From Hungatella sp. UBA3048 (lineage in GTDB: Bacteria > Bacillota > Clostridia > Lachnospirales > Lachnospiraceae), in the NCBI GenBank assembly GCA_002367105.1, contig DFCS01000044.1:124253-188252 (forward strand): a stretch of 64,000 bases of DNA. The letters are read 5' to 3'. The position numbers and the translations under genes are program-made. The notes beneath the pieces are model-generated. The model had not been told where the DNA came from. It made no database searches and worked only from the letters and a program-made list of their open reading frames with translations. Positions within the stretch are counted from its first letter, which is position 1; every line of letters starts with the position of its first letter. Shown here piece by piece: positions 9,173 to 30,975 of the stretch.

Positions 9173-10351
9173 ATGAATGAGCTGGAATTAAAATATGGAT
9201 GTAACCCGAATCAGAAGCCCTCAAGGATTTTTATGCCAGGTGGGAATGAACTCCCCATTAAGGTCTTAAGCGGCCGGCCGGGATATATCAATTTCCTGGA
9301 TGCGTTTCATGGCTGGCAGCTGGTAAGAGAATTAAAGGAAGCGACCGGCCTTCCTGCGGCGGCTTCTTTTAAACATGTTTCTCCGGCAGGTGCCGCAGTG
9401 GGACTGCCTCTTGACCGGATACTTGCAAAGATATACAGGGTGGAGGATATGGAAGGGCTTTCTCCCATGGCCTGTGCCTATGCAAGGGCAAGAGGTGCTG
9501 ACCGTATGTCTTCCTTCGGTGACTTCATTTCCCTGTCAGATACCTGTGATACGGATACCGCCAGAATTATCAAAAGGGAAGTATCGGACGGCGTCATTGC
9601 CCCGGGGTATGAACCGGAAGCCCTGGATATCTTAAGGTCAAAGAAAAACGGCAATTACAACATCATTCAAATTGACCCGGATTACCAGCCAGAGCCGCTT
9701 GAGAGAAAACAGGTTTTTGGGATTATGTTTGAGCAGGGAAGAAATGAAGAGAAGATTCAGGGAGACCTTTTAAAGAATGTGGTGACAAAGAACCAGGATA
9801 TTCCCGGGTCAGCTAAAATTGACCTAATCATTTCTCTTATTACTTTAAAATATACCCAGTCCAATTCTGTCTGTTTTGCAAAGGGCGGACAAGCGATTGG
9901 GATCGGGGCTGGTCAGCAGTCCCGCATCCACTGCACAAGACTGGCAGGAAATAAGGCGGATAACTGGTTTCTTCGCCAGGCGCCTCAGGTCCTGGAGCTG
10001 CCGTTCTTGGAGGGGATCAGCCGGGCGGACCTGGACAATGCCGTTGATGTCTACATTGGAGAAGATTATATGGATGTCATTGCTGACGGCAGATGGGAAA
10101 ATATTTTCAGGGTAAAGCCAGCCGTCTTTACATGTGAAGAAAAGAAGGCCTGGCTTAGCCATCTGACTGAGGTTTCCCTGGGATCTGATGCATTCTTCCC
10201 ATTTGGCGATAACATTGACCGCGCATACAGAAGCGGTGTAAAGTACGTGGCCCAGCCTGGGGGATCGGTCCGTGATGACCAGGTAATTGAAACCTGTGAC
10301 CAATATGGGATGGCCATGGCTTTTACAGGGCTTCGTCTGTTCCATCATTAA
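9173..10351 (+). CDS. purH: AICAR formyltransferase (PurH formyltransferase domain only, no MGS/IMPCH domain)
   Basis: MNELELKYGCNPNQ...SFKHVSPAGAA...QPGGSVRDD... are characteristic AICARFT blocks. The start is taken at ATG 9173. Confidence 0.85.
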   Translation: MNELELKYGCNPNQKPSRIFMPGGNELPIKVLSGRPGYINFLDAFHGWQLVRELKEATGLPAAASFKHVSPAGAAVGLPLDRILAKIYRVEDMEGLSPMACAYARARGADRMSSFGDFISLSDTCDTDTARIIKREVSDGVIAPGYEPEALDILRSKKNGNYNIIQIDPDYQPEPLERKQVFGIMFEQGRNEEKIQGDLLKNVVTKNQDIPGSAKIDLIISLITLKYTQSNSVCFAKGGQAIGIGAGQQSRIHCTRLAGNKADNWFLRQAPQVLELPFLEGISRADLDNAVDVYIGEDYMDVIADGRWENIFRVKPAVFTCEEKKAWLSHLTEVSLGSDAFFPFGDNIDRAYRSGVKYVAQPGGSVRDDQVIETCDQYGMAMAFTGLRLFHH

Positions 10352-10451
10352 ATGGGAAAGGAAAATAAGTACCAGCCTATATTTTTTGTAAAAGCACTAT
10401 AAAGAGAAGGCCGGCATAAAATGAGAGTAAGTAAGTTTAAGGTGGCTTTCT

Positions 10452-10733
10452 TTGAAAACTTTTCCCAAACCTTTAACTGCGCGAGAAGAACGAGAGTGTC
10501 TGGAACGATACCAGGAAGGGGATCAGGAGGCGAGAGCCACACTCATCGAGCGAAATATGCGTCTGGTGGCACATGTGGCAAAAAAATATCAGAATACAGA
10601 TTATGATATGGAAGATCTTCTTTCCGTAGGTACCATAGGACTAATAAAAGCCGTCAATACCTTTCACCCGGACAGAGGCTCCAGACTAGCCACTTATGCG
10701 GCCAAGTGTGTGGAGAATGGTATCCTATCATAA
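10452..10733 (+). CDS. sigK: sigK 5' segment (sporulation sigma-K regions 1.2-2), interrupted after ...AKCVEN
   Basis: TTG 10452 lies 6 nt after AAGGTGG. FPKPLTAREERECLERY...IERNMRLVAHVAKKY...DLLSVGTIGLIKAVNTF...LATYAAKCVEN matches SigK and SigE-group sigma factors. After codon AAT (10716-10718) the frame runs into element DNA and stops at 10731-10733. Confidence 0.9.
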   Translation: MKTFPKPLTAREERECLERYQEGDQEARATLIERNMRLVAHVAKKYQNTDYDMEDLLSVGTIGLIKAVNTFHPDRGSRLATYAAKCVENGILS

Positions 10734-10756
10734 CGGCTCCAAACGGAGGAAAGCAA

Positions 10757-10801
10757 GAAACCGGTGTAAGCCTGCGGCAGCAGAGTGTACACCGGTTTCT
10801 G
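10757..10801 (-). terminator. Hairpin downstream of the small minus-strand ORF at the left end of the element
   Basis: A 13-bp stem AGAAACCGGTGTA / TACACCGGTTTCT closes a 19-nt loop. Confidence 0.45.
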
Positions 10802-10805
10802 ACGG

Positions 10806-10982
10806 TTATATGTTAAATTCTAAGATCATATCATACATTTCTTTTCCCGTGTTGCTTAAGTGGACAGAAGCCTTCTGCAATTCCGAAACAATTTCTTCAA
10901 TATTATTCCTGCATGTTTCAGGAATAATATTACCTTTCCGCCAATAATCCTCCGGTAAAGAATATTTAAATTTGTCCAACAT
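10806..10982 (-). CDS. Hypothetical small protein of 58 aa inside the element
   Basis: The internal ATG of track ORF 10806-11135 gives MLDKFKYSLPEDYWRKGNIIPETCRNNIEEIVSELQKASVHLSNTGKEMYDMILEFNI. It is divergent from the hydrogenase operon. There is no clear Shine-Dalgarno sequence, so support is weak. Confidence 0.3.
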   Translation of the reverse strand: MLDKFKYSLPEDYWRKGNIIPETCRNNIEEIVSELQKASVHLSNTGKEMYDMILEFNI

Positions 10983-11022
10983 ATATATTGATAAATAACA
11001 AATTTGAGAAGGGGGCAAGGGT

Positions 11023-11484
11023 ATGGTGAAGTTAATTGCTGTCGGCAATCGTTTTATGAAGGATGACGCCATAGCAATTAAAGCTGCCGAAATCTTGGAA
11101 GACCGGCTGATCCGCCAGGAGATCCATGTGATCATTGGTGAAACCGATTTTCAAAACTGCTTTTATTTACTGGATAAGGATGACTTTGTTTTCATCCTTG
11201 ATGCACTTTCTTCTGGAGCAGAGCCGGGAAGCGTTCATCTGACCAGACTTGAAGATGTGATGTCACAACCTTCCTTATTCTCCATGCAGCATGATTTGAG
11301 CATGGTGGAACTCATGAAGCTATATGGCAGTCAATTTAAGGGGTACCTGATGGGTATAGAAATCTGTGAAATCGGCTTTGGCCAGGAATTAAGCACTGTT
11401 TTAAGGGATAAATTGCCACAGATCTGCAGGGTAATTGAATGCGCAATTAATAAAATCATATCGGAGGAAATCACGAATGCATGA
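11023..11484 (+). CDS. Hydrogenase maturation endopeptidase (HyaD/HybD family)
   Basis: The product MVKLIAVGNRFMKDDAIAIKAAE...FILDAL...HDLS... shows the GNxxxxDD and (D)A...H pattern of the Ni-dependent C-terminal protease. The RBS is GGGGGCAAGGG. Confidence 0.8.
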   Translation: MVKLIAVGNRFMKDDAIAIKAAEILEDRLIRQEIHVIIGETDFQNCFYLLDKDDFVFILDALSSGAEPGSVHLTRLEDVMSQPSLFSMQHDLSMVELMKLYGSQFKGYLMGIEICEIGFGQELSTVLRDKLPQICRVIECAINKIISEEITNA

Positions 11485-11734
11485 TACGTTCCTAAATCAA
11501 AATATATATGAAGCGATAGTTGAAATATGCGGGGAGAATTTTATTGATAAGATTTTTTACTTGACCATCACGGTACATACAAACAGCCATATAAGTGAAG
11601 ACAGCCTCCGTGACTATTTTACAGAAAGAAATAATACGCTTATTGGAGACTGGACAAACATACAGGTTCTTAAACGGGAAATAGAGCCGCTTACTGCGGT
11701 TATAGACGAAATTGAAGGTGAGATATCACAATGA
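11477..11734 (+). CDS. Small HypA-like protein without a zinc-finger (tentative)
   Basis: ATG 11477 follows GGAGGAAAT. The 85-aa product starts with MHD, comparable to the MHE Ni-binding N-terminus of HypA. It has no CxxC...CxxC motif. Confidence 0.35.
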   Translation: MHDTFLNQNIYEAIVEICGENFIDKIFYLTITVHTNSHISEDSLRDYFTERNNTLIGDWTNIQVLKREIEPLTAVIDEIEGEISQ

Positions 11735-11799
11735 GAAAGGCCTGACTGCTGTCCGGCAAATGTATCAATCATTCAGTATTTTTTATGGGAGGTTTTTTC

Positions 11800-12270
11800 A
11801 TGGAATTAAATATGTTTTTGAATTACATCGGGAACTGCGTCAAGCACATAAATGAGGATATAGAGAGACTTCATTCCAACCAGTACAACAATAACGTTGT
11901 GTTGGATCATTTGAGCAGCGAAGTGATCATGCTGGAAAGTCATATCAAATATTTTAGTCAGTCAAATCAAGTGGATATGGAAGAAACACAATATCCGTAT
12001 CAGGCCATCCATGCAAATCAAACCGAGGAGGAAGTTCCAAGATACTTTACCCTGGAAGAGTTATCCAGATATGATGGAAAGAACGGAGCCCCTGCTTATG
12101 TAGCGGTAAACGGAGTGGTGTATGACGTGACAAATAATTCCGTCTGGAAGGGAGACAGCCATTTTGGTCTTAATCCTGGAAAAGATTTATCAGTTAATTT
12201 TGCAACATGCCATCCGGGAGCAATGGTCCTGACCAGATTACCGATCATCGGCTATTTGGCTACAGAGTAA
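11800..12270 (+). CDS. Cytochrome b5-like heme/steroid-binding domain protein
   Basis: ATG 11800 follows GGGAGG. The C-terminal block YFTLEELSRYDGKNGAPAYVAVNGVVYDVTNNSVWKGDSHFGLNPGKD is a typical cyt-b5/MAPR-like domain. Confidence 0.65.
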   Translation: MELNMFLNYIGNCVKHINEDIERLHSNQYNNNVVLDHLSSEVIMLESHIKYFSQSNQVDMEETQYPYQAIHANQTEEEVPRYFTLEELSRYDGKNGAPAYVAVNGVVYDVTNNSVWKGDSHFGLNPGKDLSVNFATCHPGAMVLTRLPIIGYLATE

Positions 12271-12272
12271 AG

Positions 12273-13181
12273 TTGGTGAAATATTTGGATTGCGGAAGCT
12301 TTGAATGTCCTTATCAGGAAAGCAGGCTAAAAACAACGGAAAGCCTTGTGAACAGGGTAAGGGATGAAATCGCTGGAGAGACGCGGCAAAAGCGGAATCT
12401 TGTCTGGCTTGAATTAAATGGCTGCACTGGTAATACCATTTCCCTTTTAGACGGACAAAATCCGGATTTTAAGTATCTGCTCACTCAAATGTCCAATATT
12501 ATATACAGCAACAGCCTGATGAATTCTTATGGAAACAAGGCTATGGATCAGCTGTTTGACGTCATAGGCAGTGATTATATCCTAGCTGTGGAAGGTGCAG
12601 TATCTTTAAAGGATAACGGTTCTTATAACGTCATCGGCCGGCACAACGGCAGGGAAATTACCGGGTATGAGGCGGTTAAAAGACTGGGAGAACAGGCTGC
12701 CCATGTGATTGCCGTGGGAGCCTGCGCTTCGCACGGAGGCGTGTCGGCGGCAAGGCCTAATCCATCCCAGTGTGTGGGAGTACAGGAGGTTTTGCAGAGA
12801 AAAGTGATTAAATTAACAGGCTGTCCATGTCATCCGGACTGGTTTATGGGCACTCTGGCCTATCTGCTATTATATGGGGAGCCCCCTCTTGATAGCAGGG
12901 ACCGTCCCTTGATGTTTTACAGCATTACCATTCACGACAGATGTCCAAGGAGATCTTATTTTGACAGCGGCATCTTTGCAACGAAGCTCGGACAGGAAAC
13001 CTGTATGTTCATGATGGGCTGTAAAGGCCCGATTACCCAGATCGACTGCCCCATTCGCCAATGGAACGGGCATGTCAACTGGCCTATAGGGGATGATTCG
13101 CCCTGCATCGGATGTGCTCAGTTTGGATTTCCTGATGCAATGGAGCCTTTTATCACCTATGACACCATGAGAGGGGAGTAA
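12273..13181 (+). CDS. [NiFe]-hydrogenase small subunit (no Tat signal visible)
   Basis: The motifs are LELNGCTGN, VGACASHGG, TGCPCHPDW, and the distal and medial cluster ligands IHDRCP...CMFMMGCKGP...CP...SPCIGC. The start is uncertain (TTG 12273 or GTG 12276, just after the upstream stop). No RRxFxK motif is present. Confidence 0.85.
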   Translation: MVKYLDCGSFECPYQESRLKTTESLVNRVRDEIAGETRQKRNLVWLELNGCTGNTISLLDGQNPDFKYLLTQMSNIIYSNSLMNSYGNKAMDQLFDVIGSDYILAVEGAVSLKDNGSYNVIGRHNGREITGYEAVKRLGEQAAHVIAVGACASHGGVSAARPNPSQCVGVQEVLQRKVIKLTGCPCHPDWFMGTLAYLLLYGEPPLDSRDRPLMFYSITIHDRCPRRSYFDSGIFATKLGQETCMFMMGCKGPITQIDCPIRQWNGHVNWPIGDDSPCIGCAQFGFPDAMEPFITYDTMRGE

Positions 13182-13183
13182 AT

Positions 13184-14560
13184 ATGGCGGAGAGAATAAC
13201 CATCAATCCTGTTACCCGAATCAGCGGTTTCATGGAAATTGATGCCGATATCGAAGAACAGTCAGTGGTGGATGCAAAAATGAGAGGTCTGATGTTCCGT
13301 GGATTTGAAAAAATGCTTCAGGGCAGAAGTCCTTTTGATGCTGTATATTTTACACAGCGCATCTGCGGTATCTGTTCAACCGCACATTCCATGGCTTCAG
13401 CTCTTGCCCTGGAAGAAGCATTGAACATTGTCCCCTCTGAACAGGGAAGGTATTTAAGGGACCTTCTTCATGCCTGCGAATTCCTGCAAAATCATCTAAG
13501 GCATTTTTACCAGTTTACCTTACCGGATTTTGTAAAGCTTCCTGAGGATTATCCACTGTTTAAGACAGATCACAATGATTACAGGCTGCCAAAGGACATA
13601 AACGATAAAATGGTGAACGATTACTTTGAATCCCTTCAGTTCAGCAGGGATGCGCATCAGATGCTGGCCATTCTTGGAGGTAAAGCTCCTCATAATCACG
13701 GAATATTCATTGGAGGTATCACATCACCGATAACAGCAGATAAGATCATTACCATAAAATCTATCCTATATGATATAGGACAATTTATTATTGAAAAAAT
13801 GGTTCCGGACGTATACACAATCGGAACCTTTTATCCGGAGTATTATCATTACGGAGGAGGCTATGGCAACTTACTGTCCTATGGGAGCTTTAACCATTAT
13901 AAAAATTTGGGGACGCTCTATGTGGATCCTCTTGTTTATTCCAATGGTCAGACATCTCCCTTTGATCCTGCCTTTATAACCCAGGAAGACGAATACGCCT
14001 GGTTCAACGAAAATGATGAACCGGACAGGAATAAACCCCAGGCATATTCCTGGATAAAAGCGCCGAGATACCATAATATCCCTTATGAGGTAGGGCCGTT
14101 GGCAAGACAGTGGCTCTCAGGGGAGTACAGAAATGGGATCTCTGCCATGGACCGGACCATTGCAAGAGTGCTGGAAACTAAGAAAATTGTGGAAATTATG
14201 CAAACCCTTATAGATAATCTGATCCCGGGAGTATCCATGCAGAGGGAATATGAGATTCCTGTGCAGGCATCGGGAAAAGGACTGGTGGATACGACACGGG
14301 GAGCGTTGGGCCATTGGCTGTATATTGACAACAGTAAGATAGCCTTTTACCAGATCATAACCCCGTCTGCATGGAATCTGTCAACACAGACAAATGGAAT
14401 GAAGGGAACCGGAGAACAGGCACTGATGGGGACACCCGTAAAAGTTGTAACAACGCCTGTGGAAATCGGAAGGATCATACGGTCTTTTGATCCCTGCGTG
14501 TCCTGTGCCACCCATGTCTTCTTAAGCGGGGAGTATATGAATACAATTCAGGTTGTGTGA
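13184..14560 (+). CDS. [NiFe]-hydrogenase large subunit
   Basis: The N-terminal Ni-Fe ligand motif is RICGICSTAHS and the C-terminal motif is DPCVSCATH. A 14-aa extension (VFLSGEYMNTIQVV) follows, consistent with endopeptidase processing. Confidence 0.9.
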   Translation: MAERITINPVTRISGFMEIDADIEEQSVVDAKMRGLMFRGFEKMLQGRSPFDAVYFTQRICGICSTAHSMASALALEEALNIVPSEQGRYLRDLLHACEFLQNHLRHFYQFTLPDFVKLPEDYPLFKTDHNDYRLPKDINDKMVNDYFESLQFSRDAHQMLAILGGKAPHNHGIFIGGITSPITADKIITIKSILYDIGQFIIEKMVPDVYTIGTFYPEYYHYGGGYGNLLSYGSFNHYKNLGTLYVDPLVYSNGQTSPFDPAFITQEDEYAWFNENDEPDRNKPQAYSWIKAPRYHNIPYEVGPLARQWLSGEYRNGISAMDRTIARVLETKKIVEIMQTLIDNLIPGVSMQREYEIPVQASGKGLVDTTRGALGHWLYIDNSKIAFYQIITPSAWNLSTQTNGMKGTGEQALMGTPVKVVTTPVEIGRIIRSFDPCVSCATHVFLSGEYMNTIQVV

Positions 14561-14709
14561 AGCTCTTCCACAAGAGCCTGTTTTTGGTCATTCGGGCAGG
14601 AAAGCTGCTGGATATATTGAAGGACAGCCTGACTATGCAGGAGTGCAGCTTTTTTTCTCAATTCTTTTCTGTCTTCTTCTGTTTTGGGCTGATATACTAT
14701 CATATTCAT
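14548..14709 (-). CDS. Hypothetical small protein of 53 aa next to the recombinase
   Basis: The product is MNMIVYQPKTEEDRKELRKKAALLHSQAVLQYIQQLSCPNDQKQALVEELHTT. A TATAAT box lies upstream on the minus strand. The gene is divergent from the recombinase and convergent with the hydrogenase large subunit. Confidence 0.35.
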   Translation of the reverse strand: MNMIVYQPKTEEDRKELRKKAALLHSQAVLQYIQQLSCPNDQKQALVEELHTT

Positions 14710-14815
14710 AACAAGGACCTGATATAGACTGTTATTATAATGTATGATGCCTCCCATGTCCTGTATGTTTGGATTAAGGGGCGGGCGCTATGCTTTAGTA
14801 AGGAGGAAGGTTTAG

Positions 14816-16501
14816 GTGGAAGCCGGGATAGAGCGGTTTGCGATTTATTCAAGAAAATCAAAATTTACCGGAAAAGGAGAGAGCATCGGAAATCAGATCG
14901 AGCTGTGCAGGCAATACATTTTTGCACATTATGGAGCGTGTTTCGCTGACAGCGCCTGTGTATACGAGGATGAGGGGTTTTCCGGAGGAAACCTTGAACG
15001 GCCTCAGTTTAAAGTCATGATGCAGGAAGCAAAAAAGAAGAAATTTACGGCAGTCGTATGCTACCGTCTTGACCGGATAAGCCGTAACATCGGTGATTTT
15101 GCAAATCTGATTGAAGAGCTTAATGAGCTCCATATTTCCTTTATCTCTATAAAAGAGCAATTTGACACATCCTCTCCCATGGGGCGGGCCATGATGTACA
15201 TAGCTTCTGTTTTCTCTCAGTTGGAGAGAGAGACAATCGCGGAACGCATCCGGGATAACATGCTGGAGCTCTCCAAAAGCGGAAGATGGCTGGGAGGAAA
15301 TACTCCTACGGGTTATACGTCAGAGAGTGTGTCCTCCGTGACCATAGACGGTAAGGTGAAAAAAGCATTTAAGCTTAAGATGATTCCGGATGAGGCAAAT
15401 CTGGTCAAGTTGATTTATGAGAAATTTTTAGAGACAGGATCACTGACTCAAACAGAAACCTATTTGCTCCAGAATGGCCATAGGACAAAATATGGCCGTT
15501 TATTCAGCCGTTTTGCGATAAAAGGAATATTGACCAATCCGGTTTACATGATAGCAGATCATGAAGCCTATGAGTATTTACGGAAAAAAAACGTGGATCT
15601 GTTTGCAGAAAGAGATGCCTTTGACGGAAACCATGGAGTGATAGCATATAACCGTACCCTTCAAAAGGCAGGAAAAACCCACGAGATGAAAGATATGGAA
15701 GAATGGATCGTGGCAGTTGGAAAGCATAAGGGAGTGATTTCCGGCTCCATGTGGGTCAAGGTTCAGCTGCAGCTGGATCAAAATAAATCAAAAAATTACC
15801 GGAAACCCCGCAGTAATGTAGCGTTGCTGTCCGGAATCCTCTTTTGCGGCGGCTGCGGCGGTTATATGCGGCCAAAGCTGTCCGGCCGGTACAATGACGA
15901 AGGGGAACAGATCTATTCTTATTTATGTACCATGAAGGAAAAAAGCCGTATGAAATGCTGCGGAATGAAGAATGTTAATGGAAATATGCTGGATCAGATG
16001 GTCCTGGAGGAAATCAAAAAGATATCTGTGGATTGGGGTGAATTTCAAAAGCAGCTTTGCCGGAACAAAAGGGCAGTGGAAGAAAGCAAAGAGGAAGCGG
16101 AATGGGATATATCCCGTTTAAAAGATGAACGGAAGAATATGGAAGAAGAAATAACCGGACTGGTGGCCTCCCTTGGAAAAGCCGGTGGGACCGGGGCGGA
16201 AGGATATATCATACAGCAGATCGAAGGGCTCCATAAAAGAAAAGGAGAAATGGAGCAGCGGTTATGGGAGCTTACCCTTGATGAAGGAAATAAGGAGCTT
16301 TCCGATACGGAATTACAGTTTATTAAGCAGACCCTGTCTTCCTTTCAACATGTGATCGGCCTCATGGATGTCCGGCAAAGACGGGCGGCGGTCCGCACTT
16401 TTGTGGATAAGGTCATATGGGATGGTGAGAATGTTCATCTGTACCTGTTAGGCTCGAAGGTGCCTGAGTTACCAGAGCCGCAAGGTGACCATAGCAAATG
16501 A
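14816..16501 (+). CDS. spoIVCA: Large serine recombinase (SpoIVCA-like)
   Basis: GTG 14816 follows AGGAGGAAGG. The N-terminal resolvase domain carries the catalytic motif AIYSRKS. The recombinase domain, a Cys cluster (CGGCGG...C...CC) and a coiled-coil follow. The stop TGA (16499-16501) spans the right junction. Confidence 0.9.
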   Translation: MEAGIERFAIYSRKSKFTGKGESIGNQIELCRQYIFAHYGACFADSACVYEDEGFSGGNLERPQFKVMMQEAKKKKFTAVVCYRLDRISRNIGDFANLIEELNELHISFISIKEQFDTSSPMGRAMMYIASVFSQLERETIAERIRDNMLELSKSGRWLGGNTPTGYTSESVSSVTIDGKVKKAFKLKMIPDEANLVKLIYEKFLETGSLTQTETYLLQNGHRTKYGRLFSRFAIKGILTNPVYMIADHEAYEYLRKKNVDLFAERDAFDGNHGVIAYNRTLQKAGKTHEMKDMEEWIVAVGKHKGVISGSMWVKVQLQLDQNKSKNYRKPRSNVALLSGILFCGGCGGYMRPKLSGRYNDEGEQIYSYLCTMKEKSRMKCCGMKNVNGNMLDQMVLEEIKKISVDWGEFQKQLCRNKRAVEESKEEAEWDISRLKDERKNMEEEITGLVASLGKAGGTGAEGYIIQQIEGLHKRKGEMEQRLWELTLDEGNKELSDTELQFIKQTLSSFQHVIGLMDVRQRRAAVRTFVDKVIWDGENVHLYLLGSKVPELPEPQGDHSK

Positions 16502-16865
16502 AATCCTAATGCTTCTTCGTGCGAACAAGAAATATTCAAAAGAGGTTTCTTTGTTTGAACCCATTGGCGTAGACAAGGATGGAGAGACTGTAAGTTTAGT
16601 AGATGTCATTGAAATGGAAAATAAGGAGACTCTGGAATCTATTATTTTAAAACAGGATATTAAGGAACTGTATGAGGCCTTTGACAGTTGTCTTAAGGAT
16701 AATGAAAAAACCATAATCGGAATGAGGTACGGTCTGCATGGAGGAAAAGAGTATACGCAGCGGGAGATCGCGGATGTCATGGGAATATCCAGATCCTACG
16801 TATCCAGGCTTGAAAAAAAAGCTTTGGAGCGGTTAAGAGACGAACTTAAAAAGAATTGTATTTAA
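16500..16865 (+). CDS. sigK: sigK 3' segment (regions 3-4)
   Basis: EILMLLRANKKYSKEVSLFEPIGVDKDGE...YTQREIADVMGISRSYVSRLEKKALERL contains the region 4.2 HTH. The segment is in frame with the 5' segment once 10720-16500 is removed. Track ORF 16485-16865 begins inside the recombinase 3' end. Confidence 0.9.
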   Translation, partial: EILMLLRANKKYSKEVSLFEPIGVDKDGETVSLVDVIEMENKETLESIILKQDIKELYEAFDSCLKDNEKTIIGMRYGLHGGKEYTQREIADVMGISRSYVSRLEKKALERLRDELKKNCI

Positions 16866-16910
16866 AAAGAAGCATTATTAAATCGTCCCATCTCTGATGG
16901 TTGAGTAAAA

Positions 16911-16951
16911 AGTCTGGGAGGCCCGATAAACAGGGCGTTCCGGACTTCTTT
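16911..16951 (+). terminator. Probable sigK terminator
   Basis: The imperfect 14-bp stem AGTCTGGGAGGCCC / GGGCGTTCCGGACT is followed by TCTTT. Confidence 0.5.
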
Positions 16952-17168
16952 GCTGTCATAAAACAATGCGTAAGCCGGTTAGGGTGTTCTTATAAAGACT
17001 TGCTGCAGATTGTAATGAATATGGTTGACAAAAAAACAAAATCATAATACTATGTAAAAAAGGATATTTCATACTAAACATATATGTATTCTTTAATATA
17101 AGAAATGCGTACAATGCGCAGGACAAATATCTGAGAAAATTTTTGCTTATATAAGGAGGAGGACAATT

Positions 17169-18851
17169 ATGAAAAAAGTAGTCTTTCAAAAACTGCATAA
17201 GGTAATTGGAGCTATGCTTGTTTTCGGCATGGTGGTATCTCTTGCGGCCTGTGCAAAGTCAAATTCCAATCCGGGAGCTGAGAATCCGGCTAAGGGAAAT
17301 ACGGCAGAGAATAATTCTGCAAAGGGTGAGAATACGGAGGATAAAATCCTTAATATTGGAATGACCGATTCGATCAGCAGCGTAAACCCACTGTTGATGG
17401 ATGCAACTGAGATCATGAAGACCTCCACGGCAATGGAATTCCTGCCTTTAGTAGAATTAAACAGCAATCTGGAGTTTGAGGGTAGGCTGGCTTCTTCTAT
17501 TACTACGGAAGACAATATACATTTTACAGTGAATATTGATCCCAATGCAAGCTGGTCCGACGGTCAGGCCGTAACTGCGGATGACGTCGTATACACCGTT
17601 CTTAAGCTCTCAAGCCCCGTCCGTGCCAATGCAAGCATGGCACTCTATGCCATTGAAGGTGTGGGCGACGACGGTTTTTCAGAGGCGGGAGCGACGGAGT
17701 TATCAGGTGTTAAGGCAATCGACAATAAAACCGTCGAATTCACGACCAAATATCAGATGGCCCTTACCACCTTCCAGAATACATATGGACGCTATATACT
17801 GACACTGCCCAAACATGTTCTTGAGAGCGTAGCGGATGAGGACCTGGCAGGTTATGACTGGTTCAATGCTCCGACGGTAGTTAACGGGCCCTACCGCATC
17901 ACAGCCGTTGATTTGCAGCATTATGTGTCCTATGAGGCAAATGATACATACTGGAAGGGTGTTCCAAAGATTAACAGGATCAATATCAAGATTGTACCTG
18001 CGGCACAATTGCTGACCGGGCTGCAATCAGGAGAGATTGATTTTGTGCAGCAGACCACCGGTAACATCCTGCAGGAGGATTATGCCAGCGTAGAAGCCCT
18101 TGCCAATGTGACGGTCAACTATGGTGCTCCTGTTATCAACCAGTCGATCTTCTTTAATACCACCACGGTAACGGATCCCCGCATCCGCCAGGCGATTCTT
18201 TATGGAATTGACCGCCCGTCCATAATAACAGGACTGCTAAACGGAAAAGGTGAAGTGGTTGACGGCTTCTTATCCAGTGCAGGACCATTCTATGACGAGA
18301 GCCTGACGCCCACTGTTTATGATCCGGAAAAAGCGAAAGAATTGGTCGCCCAGGCAGTCGCAGACGGTTGGGATGCTTCAAAGACATTAAACTTCTATGT
18401 AAACAGTGGAGATTCCACTTTCTGCCAGGCCGCAGATTATATTGCTGCGAAGCTGCAGGAAATCGGACTAAAGATCCAGGTGACGACCGTTGACTTATCC
18501 AGCTTAATGACTAAGGCGGGAAATAAGGATTTCGATTTGCTGGCAGTACAGTATACCTATGCACCGGTAGATCCTTATCCGGACGTTAACTGGTTATTAT
18601 CTGCGGACGGTTGGACCGGCTATGTGAATGATGCCGTAACACAGGCCCTGGCGGCGACCCAGGCTACCAGTGACGTTAATGAAATCAAGAAGGAATATCG
18701 AAAAATCGATACCGTTATGCAGCAGGAGGCCCCAATGATTTCTACCTATATCATAAGTGCAATGGGAGCTGTGAATAAAAGGGTGGAGAATGCGACGCCG
18801 GATGTATATGGCTCTTTTAATAATATCAACGAATGGGATGTGACACAATGA
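17169..18851 (+). CDS. ABC transporter substrate-binding lipoprotein, family 5 (peptide/nickel type)
   Basis: The lipobox is LAACAKS. The 560-aa product has Opp/Dpp/Nik-like architecture. The RBS is AAGGAGGAGG. Confidence 0.8.
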   Translation: MKKVVFQKLHKVIGAMLVFGMVVSLAACAKSNSNPGAENPAKGNTAENNSAKGENTEDKILNIGMTDSISSVNPLLMDATEIMKTSTAMEFLPLVELNSNLEFEGRLASSITTEDNIHFTVNIDPNASWSDGQAVTADDVVYTVLKLSSPVRANASMALYAIEGVGDDGFSEAGATELSGVKAIDNKTVEFTTKYQMALTTFQNTYGRYILTLPKHVLESVADEDLAGYDWFNAPTVVNGPYRITAVDLQHYVSYEANDTYWKGVPKINRINIKIVPAAQLLTGLQSGEIDFVQQTTGNILQEDYASVEALANVTVNYGAPVINQSIFFNTTTVTDPRIRQAILYGIDRPSIITGLLNGKGEVVDGFLSSAGPFYDESLTPTVYDPEKAKELVAQAVADGWDASKTLNFYVNSGDSTFCQAADYIAAKLQEIGLKIQVTTVDLSSLMTKAGNKDFDLLAVQYTYAPVDPYPDVNWLLSADGWTGYVNDAVTQALAATQATSDVNEIKKEYRKIDTVMQQEAPMISTYIISAMGAVNKRVENATPDVYGSFNNINEWDVTQ

Positions 18852-19849
18852 CACCGCTGCTGGAAGTAGATTCGCTGGAAATGGCGTTCTCCACCGGTGC
18901 CGGTGATATCAAATGCTTAGACAGGGTCAGCCTTCATGTAAATCAAGGTGAGATCCTGTGCATCGTTGGAGAATCCGGCTCCGGCAAGAGCGTTACCCTT
19001 CTGTCAGTCATGGGTCTGCTTGGAGAAAATGGTAAAATCACAGGAGGCAAGGTGGTCTTTGACGGGCAGGAACTGCTTAATCTGCCGGAAGAGGAATTGG
19101 ACCGTATCCGTGGCAGTAAGATGACCATGATCTTTCAGGACGCCATGGCCAGCTTAAATCCGTTATTCACCATTGGGAACCAGATCATGGAAGCCATGGG
19201 GATACATATGAACCTGGACCGGAAAACAGCGAAGGAACGGGCACTGCTCCTCCTTGATAAGGTGGGGCTTCCGGATCCTTCTTCTATTATGAGCAAATAT
19301 CCGCATACACTGTCAGGAGGTATGCGGCAGCGGGCAATGATCGCCATGGCGCTTGCCTGTAATCCGAAGCTTCTCATTGCGGATGAGCCAACCACTGCGC
19401 TGGATGTTACGATTCAGGCACAGATTATGGAGCTCTTAAGGAACTTACGTGAGGAGCTTCATATGTCAATTATTTTAATTACCCATGACATGGGACTTGT
19501 AGCTGAAATGGCGGACCGGGTTATGGTTATGTATGCCGGACAGATTGTGGAGGAGGCAGGTGTTCTTGATTTATTTAAAAAACCGGGGCACCCTTATACA
19601 CAGGCTCTTCTGAAATCCATTCCCAGTATCAGAGATAAAGAAGAGAGAGAACTGTTGACGATTGAGGGTGCTGTTCCGGAGTTTTACGGTGAGATAACCG
19701 GCTGCCGCTTTGCAAACCGCTGCCCGTATATGACCGATGGCTGTGATCTGGAGCAAAGTTTGGTTGAAATAGAAGATAGTCACGGGACAAGATGCTGGCG
19801 TGCGGAAGAAATCCGGGAGAGGATGACGCAGGCATCAGGAAGGAATTAA
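18848..19849 (+). CDS. Oligopeptide/dipeptide ABC ATP-binding protein (OppD/DppD-like)
   Basis: ATG 18848 overlaps the upstream stop (ATGA). Motifs are GESGSGKS, LSGGMRQR and LLIADEPTTALD, plus the C-terminal oligopeptide-ABC extension. Confidence 0.85.
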   Translation: MTPLLEVDSLEMAFSTGAGDIKCLDRVSLHVNQGEILCIVGESGSGKSVTLLSVMGLLGENGKITGGKVVFDGQELLNLPEEELDRIRGSKMTMIFQDAMASLNPLFTIGNQIMEAMGIHMNLDRKTAKERALLLLDKVGLPDPSSIMSKYPHTLSGGMRQRAMIAMALACNPKLLIADEPTTALDVTIQAQIMELLRNLREELHMSIILITHDMGLVAEMADRVMVMYAGQIVEEAGVLDLFKKPGHPYTQALLKSIPSIRDKEERELLTIEGAVPEFYGEITGCRFANRCPYMTDGCDLEQSLVEIEDSHGTRCWRAEEIRERMTQASGRN

Positions 19850-19852
19850 CAA

Positions 19853-20872
19853 ATGCAAAAGGAACGACAACCTCTGGCAGAGATAAAGGGATTGAAAAAA
19901 TATTATCCGGTTCGTGACGGAATTATTCCACATACAGTTGGATTTATCCATGCTGTGAACGGTGTGGACTTTGAACTATTTCCGGGAGAAACTCTGGGAC
20001 TGGTAGGTGAATCCGGCTGCGGCAAATCCACCATTGGGCGGCAGCTGGCCGCGTTAGAAACTCCCACAGAGGGCGGCATTGTCTATGAAGGATATCCGTT
20101 TACGGACCGGTCAGCGGCTGGAATGAGGCAAATCCGTACCCAGATACAGATGGTATTTCAAGATCCTTATACCTCCCTTAATCCGAAAAAACGTATTTTT
20201 GAAACTCTATCTTATCCAATGCTGTATCATGGAGTCACTACAAAACAGAATGTCCATAGGGAGGTTGACCGTCTGCTTGATATGGTGGGACTCCCGAAAA
20301 ATACGAAGGGGCGTTATCCTCATGAGTTCTCCGGCGGGCAACGGCAAAGGATTGGAATCGCAAGAGCGCTTTCTCTTAACCCCAGACTGGTCATCTGCGA
20401 TGAGCCGGTCAGCGCCCTTGATGTATCAATACAGGCTCAGATTTTAAATCTGCTACGTGATCTGCAAAAGGAACTAAAGCTTACCTATCTGTTTATTGGC
20501 CACGGTCTGGATGCGGTCAAATACATCAGTGACCGGATTGCCGTCATGTATCTGGGGAAGATTGTGGAGCTTGCGGATGCAAAGGAACTGTTTGAAAATC
20601 CGGTGCATCCTTATACGCAGGCATTATGCAGCGCAGCACCGATTCCCGATCCCGAGGCCAGAGGGAGAAAAAGAGTGATATTGCAGGGCGAACTGCCTTC
20701 CAATAAGGATCTTCCTTCCGGCTGCCATTTTCACAGCCGGTGCCCCTACGCCATAGAGGAATGCAAACGATCGGAGCCGTCGCTGATCCAGGTCCAGCCA
20801 GGAAGCGGGCATTTGGCGGCCTGTCCGGTGCTGATCCAGGGTAAAAGGCCAAAGGAGGATGCGGATGCTTAA
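19853..20872 (+). CDS. Oligopeptide/dipeptide ABC ATP-binding protein (OppF/DppF-like)
   Basis: Motifs are [17 protein letters not shown] and [12 protein letters not shown]. Confidence 0.85.
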
Positions 20873-21809
20873 ATATATTATCAAGCGTATTCTTATTGCT
20901 ATCCCGGTCCTGATTGGCATAACCGTAATTGATTTTCTGATCATGACTATGGTAGGAAGTCCATTGGAACTGCTCCAGGGCCCCAGAGTGTCCGATGCGG
21001 CCATCGAAACCAAAAGAATCGCTTTAGGCCTTAATAAGCCTGTCTATGTACAATACTGGATCTGGCTGACGAATCTTCTTCAGGGCAACATGGGATATTC
21101 CATGAAGAGTTTCCAGCCGGTAAGCCAAATGATTAAAACCTATATCGGGCCAACGTTACTGCTCATGTCCGTCTCGTTATTTGTCAGTATGCTGATTGCG
21201 GTACCGGCAGGAATCTATAGCGCGGTCCACAAGTATACACCGCAGGACTATACCGTAGTCACGCTTTCCTTCCTTGGAAGCAGCGTTCCCAGTTTTTTCC
21301 TGGCATTGGTGCTGATTTATTTTTTCACTGTCAGACTTGGCTGGCTGCCATCCAGCGGCATGTATACCCTGGGAGCGCAGAAACGTTCCATAGACGTCCT
21401 CAGGCATATGATCATGCCTGTGATTGTATTGGCAACTTCCATGGCGGGGACCAATATCCGCTATATCCGCAGCGCCATGCTTGAGATACTTCAGATGGAT
21501 TACCTGCGAACGGCAAGGGCAAAGGGAATTGGCCGCTTTCTGGTGATTAATAAGCATGCGCTTCGCAATGCGTTAATTCCGGTCATTACCGTATTCGGGA
21601 TGCATATACCGATCTTGTTTGGCGGAGCCATCATCATAGAACAGGTATTTTCCTGGCCAGGGCTCGGCATGATGACCATGAGTGCAATTATCAGCAGAGA
21701 TTATCCGGTCATTATGGGCGTCTGTCTGATGTCCGCCATTGTTGTTCTGGTGGCAAACCTGCTGACAGATATCATCTACGCACTGGTAGATCCGACGATT
21801 ACGTATTAA
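20865..21809 (+). CDS. ABC permease (OppB/DppB-like)
   Basis: ATG 20865 lies 6 nt after AAAGGAGG. The N-terminus [25 protein letters not shown] is typical, and an EAA-like loop is present (...YLRTARAKG...). Confidence 0.85.
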   Translation: MLKYIIKRILIAIPVLIGITVIDFLIMTMVGSPLELLQGPRVSDAAIETKRIALGLNKPVYVQYWIWLTNLLQGNMGYSMKSFQPVSQMIKTYIGPTLLLMSVSLFVSMLIAVPAGIYSAVHKYTPQDYTVVTLSFLGSSVPSFFLALVLIYFFTVRLGWLPSSGMYTLGAQKRSIDVLRHMIMPVIVLATSMAGTNIRYIRSAMLEILQMDYLRTARAKGIGRFLVINKHALRNALIPVITVFGMHIPILFGGAIIIEQVFSWPGLGMMTMSAIISRDYPVIMGVCLMSAIVVLVANLLTDIIYALVDPTITY

Positions 21810-21825
21810 AAGCAGGAGAAAATGA

Positions 21826-22698
21826 ATGAATAGAGATAAAACAATAAACAGTGAAGATAATGCATACCGCAATACGGTAATGAGGCGGTTCTTAAAACAT
21901 AAATTGGCTGTGGCCAGCACCGTATTCCTGGCTATCATCCTCCTATGTGCGCTGCTGGCGCCTATTCTTTCGCCTTATGACCCCAATAAGGTGGTCGGTG
22001 GATTCAGCGATCCGCCTTCCTTAAAGAACCTGCTTGGAACCGACCAGGTGGGAAGGGATGTATTAAGCAGAATGCTATACGCCGTCCGAATCTCATTGTT
22101 GGTAGGATTTGCCGCTACAGCTGTATCCACGGTGGTCGGTGTGGTTTTAGGCCTGGTATCCGGGTTTTTTGGAGGAATCCTTGATATGGTAATCATGCGG
22201 TTTACTGATATGGTCATGTCCTTTCCTTATATCCTGCTTGTATTAGTTTCTGCCGCGATCTTTCGCCCGGGCCTTTTAAATATTATTCTGATTCTCGGTT
22301 TTGTTGACTGGCCCGGAATTGCCCGGCTGGTCAGAGGGAATGTTTTATCCATCCGGGAAATGAATTTTATCCAGGGGGACCGCGTTGCTGGAATGCCAAA
22401 GCGCTATATCCTGTTTTCTGAAATACTTCCCAATACGGTCGCACCCATTCTGGTATATGCGACTTCTGTTATCGCCATATCGATGCTAGATGAAGCAGCC
22501 CTAAGCTTTCTTGGTATGGGTATTCAACCGCCTCAGTCCAGTCTTGGCAATATGTTAAATGGAGCCCAATCCATCTCCATCCTCACTTCCAAGCCATGGC
22601 TGTGGGTACCGCCGGGACTGATGATCATATTGCTGGTCGTCAGTATTAATTTCATCGGAGACGCTTTAAGAGATGCTTTCGATCCTTCGGGAAATTAG
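21826..22698 (+). CDS. ABC permease (OppC/DppC-like)
   Basis: The 290-aa product has blocks typical of the family: ...LLGTDQVGRDVLSR... and ...FIQGDRVAGMP... Confidence 0.85.
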   Translation: MNRDKTINSEDNAYRNTVMRRFLKHKLAVASTVFLAIILLCALLAPILSPYDPNKVVGGFSDPPSLKNLLGTDQVGRDVLSRMLYAVRISLLVGFAATAVSTVVGVVLGLVSGFFGGILDMVIMRFTDMVMSFPYILLVLVSAAIFRPGLLNIILILGFVDWPGIARLVRGNVLSIREMNFIQGDRVAGMPKRYILFSEILPNTVAPILVYATSVIAISMLDEAALSFLGMGIQPPQSSLGNMLNGAQSISILTSKPWLWVPPGLMIILLVVSINFIGDALRDAFDPSGN

Positions 22699-26058: not shown

Positions 26059-26399
26059 TATTGGACTAAAAGGAGCTATCGCATGAACGATTTTTATCGC
26101 TGGTGCGAGGCTCTTTTTTTTCGTTTGTTTTTTTGAGCTATTCTTAAGACATTTCCCTGTCGCTTTATTTCTATGTCAAATCTAATCGCATTTCCCATCC
26201 GAACAAATTGCCGAGTAGACGGCCGTCATCTTCTCCTCAATACGATCCTGGCGTAATTGTTAAGCCACTGTTAACTGAAACAATACACCGTTTAAGTGAA
26301 ATATCTTGATTCATACTCTCTTTATCTTCCTTTTGCGCATTATTTAACAGAGCTTTTTTGCTCTATCATTTTATATCTCTCTTTATGTTTGATTGGAGG

Positions 26400-26430
26400 A
26401 AAAGTTACATTATTTGTCGTAAAAGTTACA
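26400..26430 (+). promoter_or_regulatory. Pair of 10-bp direct repeats, candidate LytTR (AgrA-like) binding site, with a -10 box downstream
   Basis: AAAAGTTACA occurs at 26400-26409 and again at 26421-26430, a centre-to-centre spacing of exactly 21 bp. TATAAT lies at 26459-26464, upstream of agrD. Confidence 0.6.
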
Positions 26431-26498
26431 ACATCTTCAAATTGATAAAAAGGGGGTATATAATAAAAATAAAATATACTTTAGGAGGTAATCCCATT

Positions 26499-26645
26499 AT
26501 GAAAAAAGTAAAGAATAATCCAAGAGTGGTCAGTATAATTAGCCATATGGCACTAGGTTTTTCTGTAATAGCAGCAAATACACTCTGCTGTGCTATTTAT
26601 CATCAACCAACAAAACCTGATTTGAAAAAATTGAGAAAGTTCTGA
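26499..26645 (+). CDS. agrD: AgrD-like autoinducing peptide precursor (48 aa)
   Basis: ATG 26499 follows TTAGGAGG. MKKVKNNPRVVSIISHMALGFSVIAANTLCCAIYHQPTKPDLKKLRKF has an amphipathic leader, a Cys-containing core, and a QP..P charged tail. The stop overlaps the agrB start (TGATG). Confidence 0.7.
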   Translation: MKKVKNNPRVVSIISHMALGFSVIAANTLCCAIYHQPTKPDLKKLRKF

Positions 26646-27223
26646 TGGAAAGGCTGGCAGAAAGATTAACTCATTATATTCTTTCTTATGAAGGGATGAA
26701 AGAGGAAGATTACAATATATATAAGTATGGAATACAAACAGGGTTAGAGATGTTTTTGTGTTTATTTATAAGCACAATACTAGCGATATACCTTAAATCG
26801 CTAGTAGAATTTTTAATATTTATAATTGTATTTTTTGCTTTAAGATCTTATGTTGGCGGGTTTCATTTAAAACACTTTACCTCATGCTGCTTTTGTTCTT
26901 GCAGTGTAATTTGTGCAGTATTGATTATTTCAAAAAAGTTTGAACCGTCTGTATATGTTTCAATGTTTGTGACGGTAGGTTGTATGTGGACAATCTATAG
27001 GTTAGCACCTATTACAACGAAGAAACTCATATTAGATGATAGTGAGATATCCTATTTTTCTTTTAAAAGAAAGCGAATCATGTTATGTATCATTGTTTTA
27101 GATATAATATTCGGAATCTTAGGTTTGGGTAGGTATGTATCATTGATTATGTATATTTTAGTCGTAATTTTAAACTCTATGATTATGGAATTGTTTAATG
27201 ATAAGAAATGTAGAAATACATAG
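26645..27223 (+). CDS. agrB: AgrB-family AIP-processing membrane peptidase
   Basis: The 192-aa polytopic product contains ...LRSYVGGFHLKHFTSC..., the conserved R-x-x-GG-H and Cys region of AgrB. Confidence 0.8.
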   Translation: MERLAERLTHYILSYEGMKEEDYNIYKYGIQTGLEMFLCLFISTILAIYLKSLVEFLIFIIVFFALRSYVGGFHLKHFTSCCFCSCSVICAVLIISKKFEPSVYVSMFVTVGCMWTIYRLAPITTKKLILDDSEISYFSFKRKRIMLCIIVLDIIFGILGLGRYVSLIMYILVVILNSMIMELFNDKKCRNT

Positions 27224-27421
27224 AGGGGTCCGTGTTCTATTAATTAAAATATGTTAATGATAGATGATTCCACATATCTGTTATTATATTTTTGTAGTGG
27301 GATAGAAGATGATAATACTCGCTATAAGAGATTATAACAGAAAGGAGTGTTGCCATTGCAGTATTTAAAAATAATTAGGCTATGGTAAAAAAAATAAAGA
27401 TGATTTAGAAAGGAGAAGAAT

Positions 27422-27607
27422 ATGGGAGATTATAGTGAATTTGATCTGGATTTAAAGAAGAAAACAACAAGAGCGGGTAATGGCGGTAATGGAGGTAATG
27501 GTGGAGAAGGAGGAGGAGGAACTTCTCAGGCTACAACAGTAACTATAACTATTGGTATGACTACATCAAAAAATTGCAGTGCCCCTACTTGTACATGCTT
27601 CTGTTAA
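27422..27607 (+). CDS. Class I lanthipeptide precursor (LanA)
   Basis: The RBS is GAAAGGAGAAG. The leader contains the FDLD box (F-N/D-L-D). The C-terminal region TSQATTVTITIGMTTSKNCSAPTCTCFC has 13 Ser/Thr and 4 Cys. The gene lies directly upstream of lanB. Confidence 0.8.
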   Translation: MGDYSEFDLDLKKKTTRAGNGGNGGNGGEGGGGTSQATTVTITIGMTTSKNCSAPTCTCFC

Positions 27608-27687
27608 GTTGTAGCTGTAAGCTCATTTTTGATAACCAAAGTGGTTAGATCTACACGTAAAAATTATAAATCTAGATAATGAGCTGC

Positions 27688-27724
27688 ATAGGGCGTACTT
27701 AAAACTATATTAAGTACGCCCTAT
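27688..27724 (+). terminator. Intercistronic hairpin between lanA and lanB (putative leaky terminator or processing site)
   Basis: A perfect 15-bp stem ATAGGGCGTACTTAA / TTAAGTACGCCCTAT is present, with only a weak T-tract after it. Confidence 0.5.
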
Positions 27725-30958: not shown

Positions 30959-30975
30959 GGTGAAAAATAATTATA

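Follow-up and report, generated by a model that had tools for sequence, protein, structure and literature searches.

What does it mean for a [NiFe]-hydrogenase operon to lie inside sigK, the gene for sigma-K, and what becomes of the operon when the gene is rejoined? The question is raised by a 64,000-nt stretch of the Hungatella sp. UBA3048 assembly (GCA_002367105.1, contig DFCS01000044.1, positions 124,253 to 188,252), referred to here as the window. An earlier reading of the letters without database searches (the sequence-only reading) had placed the operon within an element interrupting sigK and had suggested that excision in the mother cell would remove it from the chromosome late in sporulation. 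Skin-type elements, which interrupt sigK, are usually derived from prophages, although such an origin is not strictly defining. We consider it probable that the window holds a compact, domesticated skin-type element that is not a prophage, that carries a functional hydrogenase as its cargo, and that is probably excised in the mother cell by way of a directionality factor.

Results

A 5.8-kb element splits sigK

Two non-adjacent fragments of sigK together make up a full-length sigma-K (Table 1). The 5' fragment covers codons 1-89 plus the first base of codon 90 and lies in an open reading frame (ORF) at 10452-10733 that matches positions 24-114 of the SigK model TIGR02846. Translation starts at a TTG, which has AAGGTGG as its ribosome-binding site and is closely preceded by a stop codon. 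When the halves were joined in silico, a 633-nt ORF of 210 amino acids was obtained, with the junction GAG AAT GAA ATC (…CVEN-EILM…). The product is 97% identical to the intact SigK (P0241) encoded on L080 (L numbers are our labels of related loci and contigs), and the two genes align without gaps at 92.3% identity. In pairwise Nei-Gojobori comparisons of the window with five related elements, used for all ratios of nonsynonymous to synonymous substitution (dN/dS) given below, the sigK halves showed values of 0-0.03. A pseudogenized sigK or an asporogenous host was ruled out by these values (no more than 0.03 for both halves). The SigK of the window begins about 23 positions into TIGR02846 and has no pro-sequence, so SpoIVFB-type processing cannot gate its activity. 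The pro-sequence is also missing from the intact SigK of Hungatella and of L080 (210-216 amino acids), as in Clostridioides difficile.

The element between the halves is 5,781 bp long and is bounded by a common AATG core. The left attachment (att) junction, attL, reads ...GTGTGGAGAATG/GTATCCTATCATAACGGCTC and the right junction, attR, reads GAGCCGCAAGGTGACCATAGCAAATG/AAATCCTAATGC..., where the slash marks the junction; the outer GAGCCG at the right end is the inverse orientation of the CGGCTC at the left end. The half-sites, including these inverted outer motifs, are kept in 19 attL and 17 attR sequences of related genomes, and in some species the shared core is lengthened to 12 bp (AATGAAATCCTA). 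The core is too short for a generic repeat finder, which missed the att sites; they were defined by comparative alignment. Empty sites agree with these boundaries. L080 carries its intact sigK in the same synteny (ATP-binding cassette (ABC)-IMP cyclohydrolase-purH-sigK), blastn breakpoints against it fall at window positions 10726 and 16497, and L081 provides a second example. Since both ends of the element fall beyond the hydrogenase operon, the operon is inside the excised segment. The sequence-only reading had named the operon as cargo of a sigK-interrupting element, and the empty sites, the conserved att sites and the junctions described below bear this out.

attP junctions occur in three public assemblies

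We searched for the product of excision, attP, with a degenerate 34-mer for the predicted right-end/left-end junction. It was found in exactly one metagenome contig, L084, and among 84 loci in L084 and L014 alone. L084 is a 5,756-bp contig that is 94.6% identical to the element, circularly permuted, and overlaps itself by 23 bp at its termini; it therefore represents a circle of about 5.73 kb. A third case, L086, surfaced through a 630-amino-acid "recombinase" in the same protein cluster. It is a 5,692-bp contig of a Lacrimispora sphenoides metagenome-assembled genome (MAG), bears the attP junction and has the order small subunit-large subunit-53-aa ORF-recombinase-attP-protease-HypA-like-cytochrome b5. 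In L014 the junction, GAGCCGCTTTGTGACTCTAGCAAATG/ATATACTATCATAACGGC, is internal to a tandem duplicate whose copies are 99.99% identical. The predicted attP is thus present in three independent public assemblies, and attP forms, whether excised or tandem, evidently occur in nature.

In L014 (5507-21135), a MAG contig, the sigK halves enclose the element twice, head to tail, in a 7,815-bp version. The duplicate may be either a real tandem integration or an excised circle that the assembler threaded into the chromosome.

This assembly, together with the ability of de Bruijn assemblers to close loops on repeats, could suggest that all attP contigs are assembly artefacts or true tandem duplications. 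We consider this quite improbable. Three independent samples and assemblers gave an identical junction exactly at the predicted core, and, as the shared core is only 4-12 bp, the attP k-mer path needs spanning reads. Two of the contigs are element-sized and permuted, one of them with a terminal overlap. Further, a tandem array would itself need recombinase-mediated recombination of attP with an att site. Because two attP contigs are element-sized and circularly permuted, excision itself appears to be real. The assemblies indicate that it is precise, takes place at short att cores, puts sigK back in frame and produces an attP circle.

The cargo is an intact and conserved hydrogenase operon

The five co-oriented ORFs at 11023-14560 stand exactly where the sequence-only reading had put them, and profile searches support its naming of the protease, the cytochrome b5-like protein and the two hydrogenase subunits (Table 1). 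The dN/dS values were 0.12-0.29 for the protease, 0.11-0.14 for the 85-aa protein, 0.08-0.13 for the cytochrome b5-like protein, 0.05-0.08 for the small subunit and 0.055-0.096 for the large subunit. All genes of the element are under purifying selection and appear to be functional. The cytochrome b5-like protein is a candidate redox partner of the hydrogenase. The small subunit would have 324 residues if read from ATG 12207, and has 302, as in relatives, from TTG 12273, which is the likely start.

Table 1. Features of the sigK element and of the interrupted gene in the window
Feature	Position	Strand	Evidence
sigK 5' fragment (spoIVCB equivalent)	10452..10719	+	TIGR02846 positions 24-114, E=9e-42; Pfam Sigma70_r2
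attL crossover core AATG, then conserved element-side half-site GTATCCTATCATAACGGCTC	10716..10719	+	Alignment of 19 attL and 17 attR; empty-site and attP junctions
Remnant of methyl-accepting chemotaxis protein gene	10827..10991	-	tblastn of L003 protein residues 472-524, E=7e-6
Two-block promoter-like motif GAATATT-N13-CATATATA, putative sigma-E type	10960..10987	+	36 nt upstream of protease start codon
Hydrogenase maturation endopeptidase (153 aa)	11023..11484	+	Pfam HycI E=7e-7; TIGR00072 81 bits vs cut-off 47
85-aa HypA-N-domain-like protein	11477..11734	+	Weak Pfam HypA match
Cytochrome b5-like heme/steroid-binding domain protein (161 aa)	11785..12270	+	PF00173 E=1.8e-7
[NiFe] small subunit	12207..13181	+	PF14720 E=3e-31; PF01058; TIGR00391 224 bits vs cut-off 180
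[NiFe] large subunit (458 aa)	13184..14560	+	PF00374 E=6e-98
Conserved 53-aa ORF (MNMIVYQPKTEEDRKELRKK...), divergent from recombinase gene	14548..14709	-	tblastn, 23 element loci
Terminator-like hairpin and T-run, directly 3' of large-subunit stop	14562..14587	+	Consensus scan
Promoter-like block upstream of 53-aa ORF, CAAACATACnGGACAnG....CATACnAnTATA	14734..14771	-	At least 80% conserved columns, 24 loci
Large serine recombinase (561 aa)	14816..16501	+	Pfam Resolvase, Recombinase, Zn_ribbon_recom; PHROG 95 integrase E=8e-107
attR crossover core AATG, preceded by conserved element-side half-site GAGCCGCAAGGTGACCATAGCA	16497..16500	+	Alignment of 19 attL and 17 attR
sigK 3' fragment (spoIIIC equivalent), stop codon included	16501..16865	+	TIGR02846 positions 109-226, E=2e-41; Sigma70_r4

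The 85-aa protein had been called HypA-like, a label that survives in part. Members of HypA have an N-terminal MHE nickel-binding motif and a zinc-binding CxxC...CxxC domain. Weak HypA matches over positions 1-51 were found in 12/15 members of the 85-aa family (best E=0.0019; E=0.034 for the window copy), and no Pfam or NCBIfam model matched at standard thresholds. The family has an invariant Met-His-Asp (MHD) N-terminus in place of MHE and lacks the zinc-binding cysteines. A profile of the family gave chance-level matches only against PDB sequences, and a single-sequence AlphaFold2 model was poor (pLDDT 67, pTM 0.34, all-helical). The protein appears to resemble the N-terminal, nickel-binding domain of HypA without being a member of the HypA family.

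The hydrogenase belongs to an unusual clostridial family

All motifs quoted in the sequence-only reading are present. The large subunit has RICGICSTAH (L1, RxCGxC) and DPCVSCATH (L2, DPCxxCxxH); the family shows no variation at C61, C64, C438, C441 and H444, and all four metal-binding cysteines are kept. A C-terminal tail of 14 residues follows the cleavage site at H444, and a TIGR00072 protease is encoded in the operon. The ligands of the small subunit were mapped on that of Desulfovibrio gigas (1frv_A). The distal His and three Cys are present, the medial cluster has three Cys with Pro at the fourth position (3Fe-4S type), and three canonical Cys of the proximal cluster are present.

Two positions around the proximal cluster depart from the standard enzyme. 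Asn takes the place of the second proximal Cys (GCTGN; window 12423-12434, residues 73-76) in 74/74 family sequences, which makes the CTGN already seen in the window a family-wide character, and an extra Cys occurs in GCPCHP (window 12822-12830, residues 206-208) in 74/76. This suggests that the proximal cluster has been rewired across the whole clostridial family. In the large subunit, TRI(S/N)GFMEI (residues 11-19, window 13214-13240) stands in place of RIEGH, the near-universal motif with the proton-relay glutamate, in 80/80 sequences examined; an invariant Glu lies four residues beyond the replaced position. The Asn, GCPCHP and TRI(S/N)GFMEI motifs are evidently family traits and not signs of decay.

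The best solved relatives of the large subunit are the [NiFeSe] enzymes of D. vulgaris and D. baculatum (group 1a; E=4e-95), compared with about 1e-67 for standard group 1b-d enzymes; NF033181 scored 444 bits, below its 600-bit cut-off. No twin-arginine (Tat) signal (RRxFxK) was found in the N-terminal 72 residues of the small subunit. The enzyme would be placed in a Tat-less clostridial "group 1a-like" family with a cytochrome b5 partner, to which group 1a is closest. It is most likely cytoplasmic and the operon most likely functional.

The element of the window is a reduced derivative

In the elements of L005 and L008, hypF-hypC-hypD-hypE lie between the HypA-like and cytochrome b5 genes, and hypFCDE occupy the same position in non-element clusters (Anaerotignum and others). 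Because of this shared position, the hypFCDE-bearing arrangement is read as ancestral, and the absence of hyp genes from the element of the window, which the sequence-only reading had pointed out and which tblastn with hypFCDE upheld, is a derived state. At its left end, the element of many species carries genes for an alpha-galactosidase and an AraC regulator. The chemotaxis-receptor gene, a remnant in the window, is full length in the elements of L002 and L003. The 5.8-kb element is thus a reduced derivative.

Reductive evolution of this kind, with hypFCDE in L005 and L008 but not in the window and with a truncated chemotaxis-receptor gene, could mean that the cargo is decaying or non-catalytic and that the enzyme is no longer matured in this lineage. 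The missing hyp genes and the non-canonical proximal ligands and RIEGH region could be cited to the same effect. We nevertheless find this highly improbable. All five ORFs are intact in more than 20 species, and between hyp-less elements (the window vs L001 and L003) each subunit had a dN/dS of 0.08 and the protease one of 0.12-0.13. The active-site cysteines are all invariant, and the unusual motifs occur in every member of the family, including those with adjacent hypFCDE. Further, it is normal for the hyp genes of clostridia to be unlinked, as in Clostridium autoethanogenum (PMC9431212). Pseudogenization of the subunits, which would have undone the sequence-only reading, is contradicted by the retained essential ligands and by strong purifying selection.

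The element is inherited with the chromosome

We scanned one genome per species with a profile of the large subunit, which yielded 79 loci, and then ran tblastn with all window genes. In 23 of the 26 closest species-level loci, the hydrogenase occurred together with the recombinase and/or sigK fragments. Both sigK halves were visible in 15 of these 23, the remaining loci being cut by contig ends. The 23 comprise Lacrimispora species, "Hungatella" MAGs, Clostridium boliviensis and Clostridium sp. Marseille-P2415, with large-subunit identities of 75-96%. The large subunit, recombinase and PurH of the window match exactly proteins recorded as Lacrimispora sp., and their protein clusters are shared with L. 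celerecrescens and L. sphenoides; the DNA of the window is accordingly assigned to a Lacrimispora species. More distant Clostridia (Anaerotignum, Clostridium aminobutyricum, Pseudobacteroides, Petroclostridium) share the hydrogenase cluster, and neither sigK nor a recombinase gene lies close to it there. The sub-branch to which the hydrogenase of the window belongs spans 64-96% large-subunit identity among Lachnospirales and other Clostridia.

Synonymous divergence (dS) of the element genes is close to that of the flanking purH, which argues for vertical inheritance and co-divergence with the chromosome. Recent horizontal acquisition was ruled out on the same ground. The flanking genes of the empty site L080 (purH 89%, FtsX 91%) are nearer to the window than are those of the element-bearing L003-L026, and its intact sigK is therefore best read as a secondary loss by precise germ-line excision.

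The recombination module includes a conserved small ORF

The gene for the large serine recombinase abuts the sigK 3' fragment, as expected of a recombinase at the edge of a skin-type element. Its dN/dS was 0.075-0.11. The NCBIfam XisF model matched it with E=1e-32, below the cut-off of the model. Its TGA stop codon straddles the crossover core (16497-16501), and in the integrated state the final A is supplied by sigK. In the circular form of the clade that includes the window, the ORF reads through attP (593 amino acids predicted for the window), and on L086 a 630-aa read-through ORF is annotated at 2616-4508. The stop is retained in species whose left end begins AAATCC.

Between the hydrogenase and recombinase genes lies a 53-aa ORF. 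It had tblastn matches in 23 element loci (49-99% identity) and none in any non-element hydrogenase locus, gene calling on L086 recovered it independently, and its dN/dS (0.12-0.41) indicates purifying selection. We infer, by analogy with C. difficile, that it is a candidate recombination directionality factor. The conserved block upstream of it can be read as a mother-cell (sigma-E/K) promoter, with a -35 region containing ATA/AC, a -10 region CATACATT and a GGACA box, which we take to resemble the SpoIIID consensus. Sequence alone gives no choice between this reading and a sigma-A promoter, and the two fit equally well.

Large serine integrases are typical of mobile elements, and the recombinase matches PHROG 95. 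The element might thus be an ordinary integrative or mobilizable element that uses sigK as its attB and excises and reintegrates at any growth stage without developmental control. The attP forms came from bulk metagenomes without a link to sporulation, the block preceding the 53-aa ORF also fits a sigma-A promoter, and there are lineages with an empty site. We regard this as unlikely, given that element-gene dS tracks purH across 23 species at the same site and with the same flanks, which points to long vertical descent and away from horizontal spread. Further, no phage, transfer or replication genes were found in the element, and for every characterized sigK-intervening element the mother cell is the site of excision (PMC5025042, PMC4191935). 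Restriction of excision to the sporulating mother cell is what analogy with Bacillus subtilis and C. difficile would predict for the domesticated skin-type element favored here.

A sigma-E-like motif precedes the operon

The motif GAATATT-N13-CATATATA occurs in 25/25 element loci with fixed spacing and unrelated spacer sequences. By background frequency, 0.003 matches would be expected per 120 nt; both strands of the 64-kb window together contain only 5. It is missing upstream of the nearest non-element loci, of distant family members and of the pSOL1 cluster of Clostridium acetobutylicum; since it is absent from pSOL1 and the distant members, it is a feature of the element-borne clade alone. 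A search of the region 5' of the protease gene revealed no sigma-70-like promoter. The motif fits the sigma-E consensus, reportedly given by Helmann and Moran as ZHATAxx-14-CATACAHT. It also fits the sigma-E promoters of C. difficile, with an "ATA" -35 and a CATA-type -10 region (PMC3789822), and it may be a sigma-E promoter.

In L009-L026, whose elements bear the alpha-galactosidase, the -35-like GAATATT block lies about 60 nt 5' of the protease gene, where it occupies the loop of the hairpin that terminates the upstream gene, as near 7830-7880 of L015 (AAAAGACATGGGA…TCCCATGTCTTTTT). An Rfam scan of window positions 10000-17500 returned no RNA family.

The homologous hydrogenase of C. acetobutylicum is expressed throughout stationary phase (PMC2530871) and not in vegetative chemostats (PMC4669385), and the sigma-E regulon of C. 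difficile includes an [FeFe]-hydrogenase. Mother-cell expression of the element hydrogenase is plausible, and the sigma-E-like motif hints at it. From these expression data, the element-only motif and the fact that the operon could be transcribed on the circle, it is possible to go further and regard the hydrogenase as a mother-cell sporulation enzyme and not as passive cargo, an idea that we put forward tentatively and hold to be doubtful at present. If it is true, Lacrimispora has physically linked an H2-metabolizing module for the terminal cell with the DNA switch for sigma-K activation, and the pair has been passed down vertically as a domesticated developmental cassette.

Neighboring loci

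Directly downstream of the sigK 3' fragment lies an Opp/Nik-type ABC transporter operon (17169-22698), whose binding protein has sub-threshold similarity to NikA. In the empty-site relatives, sigK is directly followed by a BglG/phosphotransferase system operon (L080) or a HicAB pair (L081), so the ABC operon is an insertion beside the hydrogenase element. It could be a nickel importer. Elsewhere in the window, a low-GC island (26300-37730; 28-31% vs about 44%) holds a class I lanthipeptide cluster with AgrB (26645-27223), a LanB dehydratase (27755-30958), an ABC exporter, a LanC cyclase, a family-2 glycosyltransferase and a divergent GHKL kinase with a LytTR regulator.

Discussion

We propose that the element's own large serine recombinase would recombine attL with attR at the AATG-containing core, release the element as an attP circle and leave an in-frame sigK of 210 codons without a pro-sequence. 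In C. difficile, a constitutive recombinase needs the 72-aa, sigma-E/SpoIIID-dependent factor CD1234 for excision, and sigma-K has no pro-sequence (PMC5025042). Because SigK here is also pro-less and a small accessory ORF lies beside a large serine recombinase, this mechanism is the best-supported model. By that analogy, excision would probably be licensed in the mother cell by a small factor encoded on the element, with the 53-aa ORF as the candidate. The hydrogenase operon, from promoter to terminator, would survive excision intact on the circle. The earlier claim that excision removes the hydrogenase genes therefore needs to be divided: the attP contigs agree that the operon leaves the chromosome, but it would not be lost. 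The ancestral element would have carried a complete hyd-hypFCDE cluster, from which the lineage of the window would have lost hypFCDE and the chemotaxis-receptor gene by deletion. Since hypFCDE were lost from the element, maturation would have to rely on genes elsewhere in the genome.

Several observations weigh against this account. One canonical proximal Cys of the small subunit and the RIEGH glutamate of the large subunit are missing, both family-wide. No hypCDEF genes were found in the 64-kb window, including by tblastn with HypF, HypC, HypD and HypE of L005. A search with an element-borne HypD gave no Lacrimispora-named match among the best 120, all at least 52% identical; the search with the large subunit, by contrast, gave many. 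Any maturation capacity is putative for these reasons. The 53-aa ORF has no detectable similarity to families in Pfam or PHROGs, its predicted isoelectric point of about 6.7 is uninformative, and the block upstream of it fits sigma-A equally well (AGGACA-17-TATAAT). The attP junctions in assemblies could reflect tandem duplications, or excision that has no connection with sporulation. Finally, the element is not needed for sporulation control in the clade, as Hungatella and L080 have an intact, pro-less sigK.

As to the hyp genes, most Lacrimispora genomes may hold only a distant set, or none. Unlinked hyp genes are common in clostridia, C. autoethanogenum being an example (PMC9431212).

In current annotations the genes appear as "recombinase family protein" and "nickel-dependent hydrogenase" only, and the split sigK is overlooked. 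The usual view is that skin-type elements are prophage relics whose removal is their sole host-relevant act. The element described here departs from the prophage pattern: its cargo is a hydrogenase operon, and in relatives also the alpha-galactosidase and AraC regulator, the chemotaxis receptor or hypFCDE. It has been stripped to a recombination module and a coherent energy-metabolism operon and has kept its site while a whole genus radiated. Skin-type elements can thus be stable carriers of adaptive host-type genes, gaining and losing cargo such as hypFCDE, the alpha-galactosidase with its regulator, and the chemotaxis receptor. The locus also invites the idea of a role in sporulation for the Tat-less clostridial [NiFe]-hydrogenases, which are poorly understood. 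Further, with 5.8 kb, defined attL, attR, attP and attB, and a 53-aa candidate factor, it offers a small and tractable system for the directionality of large serine recombinases.

Comparison with known systems

The hydrogenase itself has a counterpart on pSOL1 of C. acetobutylicum, where the same five-gene kit is found (identities of 49% for the large subunit, 48% for the cytochrome b5 protein and 34% for the 86-aa MHD protein). The pSOL1 large subunit has served as the HydDB "group 1a" reference for other clostridia, and clostridial group 1a enzymes, like the present one, lack a twin-arginine signal and in some species have a cytochrome b5 neighbor (PMC9431212). Unlike the operon described here, pSOL1-type clusters have another gene order and are chromosomal or plasmid-borne without a recombinase or sigK context.

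As in the window, the skin element of C. difficile (skinCd; CD1231 recombinase, CD1234) interrupts a pro-less sigK, has a large serine recombinase at its edge and a small accessory ORF, and has a short conserved att core in imperfect inverted repeats, from which excision gives an attP circle (PMC5025042). It differs in its size (14.6 kb, 18-19 genes), its insertion position and the absence of an energy-metabolism operon. The element of the window has 5.8 kb, a genus-wide hydrogenase cargo and a 53-aa ORF without detectable similarity to known proteins. The skin element of B. subtilis also splits sigK, encodes a serine recombinase (SpoIVCA) at its edge and is retained in the germ line through the forespore. 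However, it is a 48-kb prophage remnant with 67 ORFs, its recombinase gene is itself under sigma-E/SpoIIID control, and its sigma-K has a pro-sequence and extra checkpoints.

In compactness, the element is closest to gin, in gerE of B. cereus, and to the skin elements of 2.6-6.6 kb listed in the survey by Galperin et al. (2022). Like it, these have a recombinase, few genes and no phage genes, and in such small intervening elements the recombinase gene usually lies immediately upstream of the 3' gene fragment. The survey lists 15 skin elements of 2.6-48 kb, none from Lachnospiraceae, and its accessible parts do not mention hydrogenases; the present element has a five-gene metabolic operon under purifying selection. 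Full-text literature searches also returned no report linking sigK elements to hydrogenases or to Lacrimispora. The remark in the sequence-only reading that such cargo is unusual is consistent with these sources, so far as they reach.

Programmed excision in a terminally differentiated cell with a link to an uptake [NiFe]-hydrogenase is also seen in Anabaena/Nostoc, with the hupL element and XisC and the fdxN element and XisF; XisF is a large serine recombinase, as is the enzyme of the window. According to the work cited in PMC4191935, the arrangement there is the inverse, in that hupL is the interrupted target and is restored in heterocysts. Here, the hydrogenase is the excised cargo and a sigma-factor gene is restored. 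The mechanism of excision is thus familiar, and we rate as new the conserved metabolic cargo, its genus-wide vertical inheritance and the possibility of a sporulation-specific hydrogenase.

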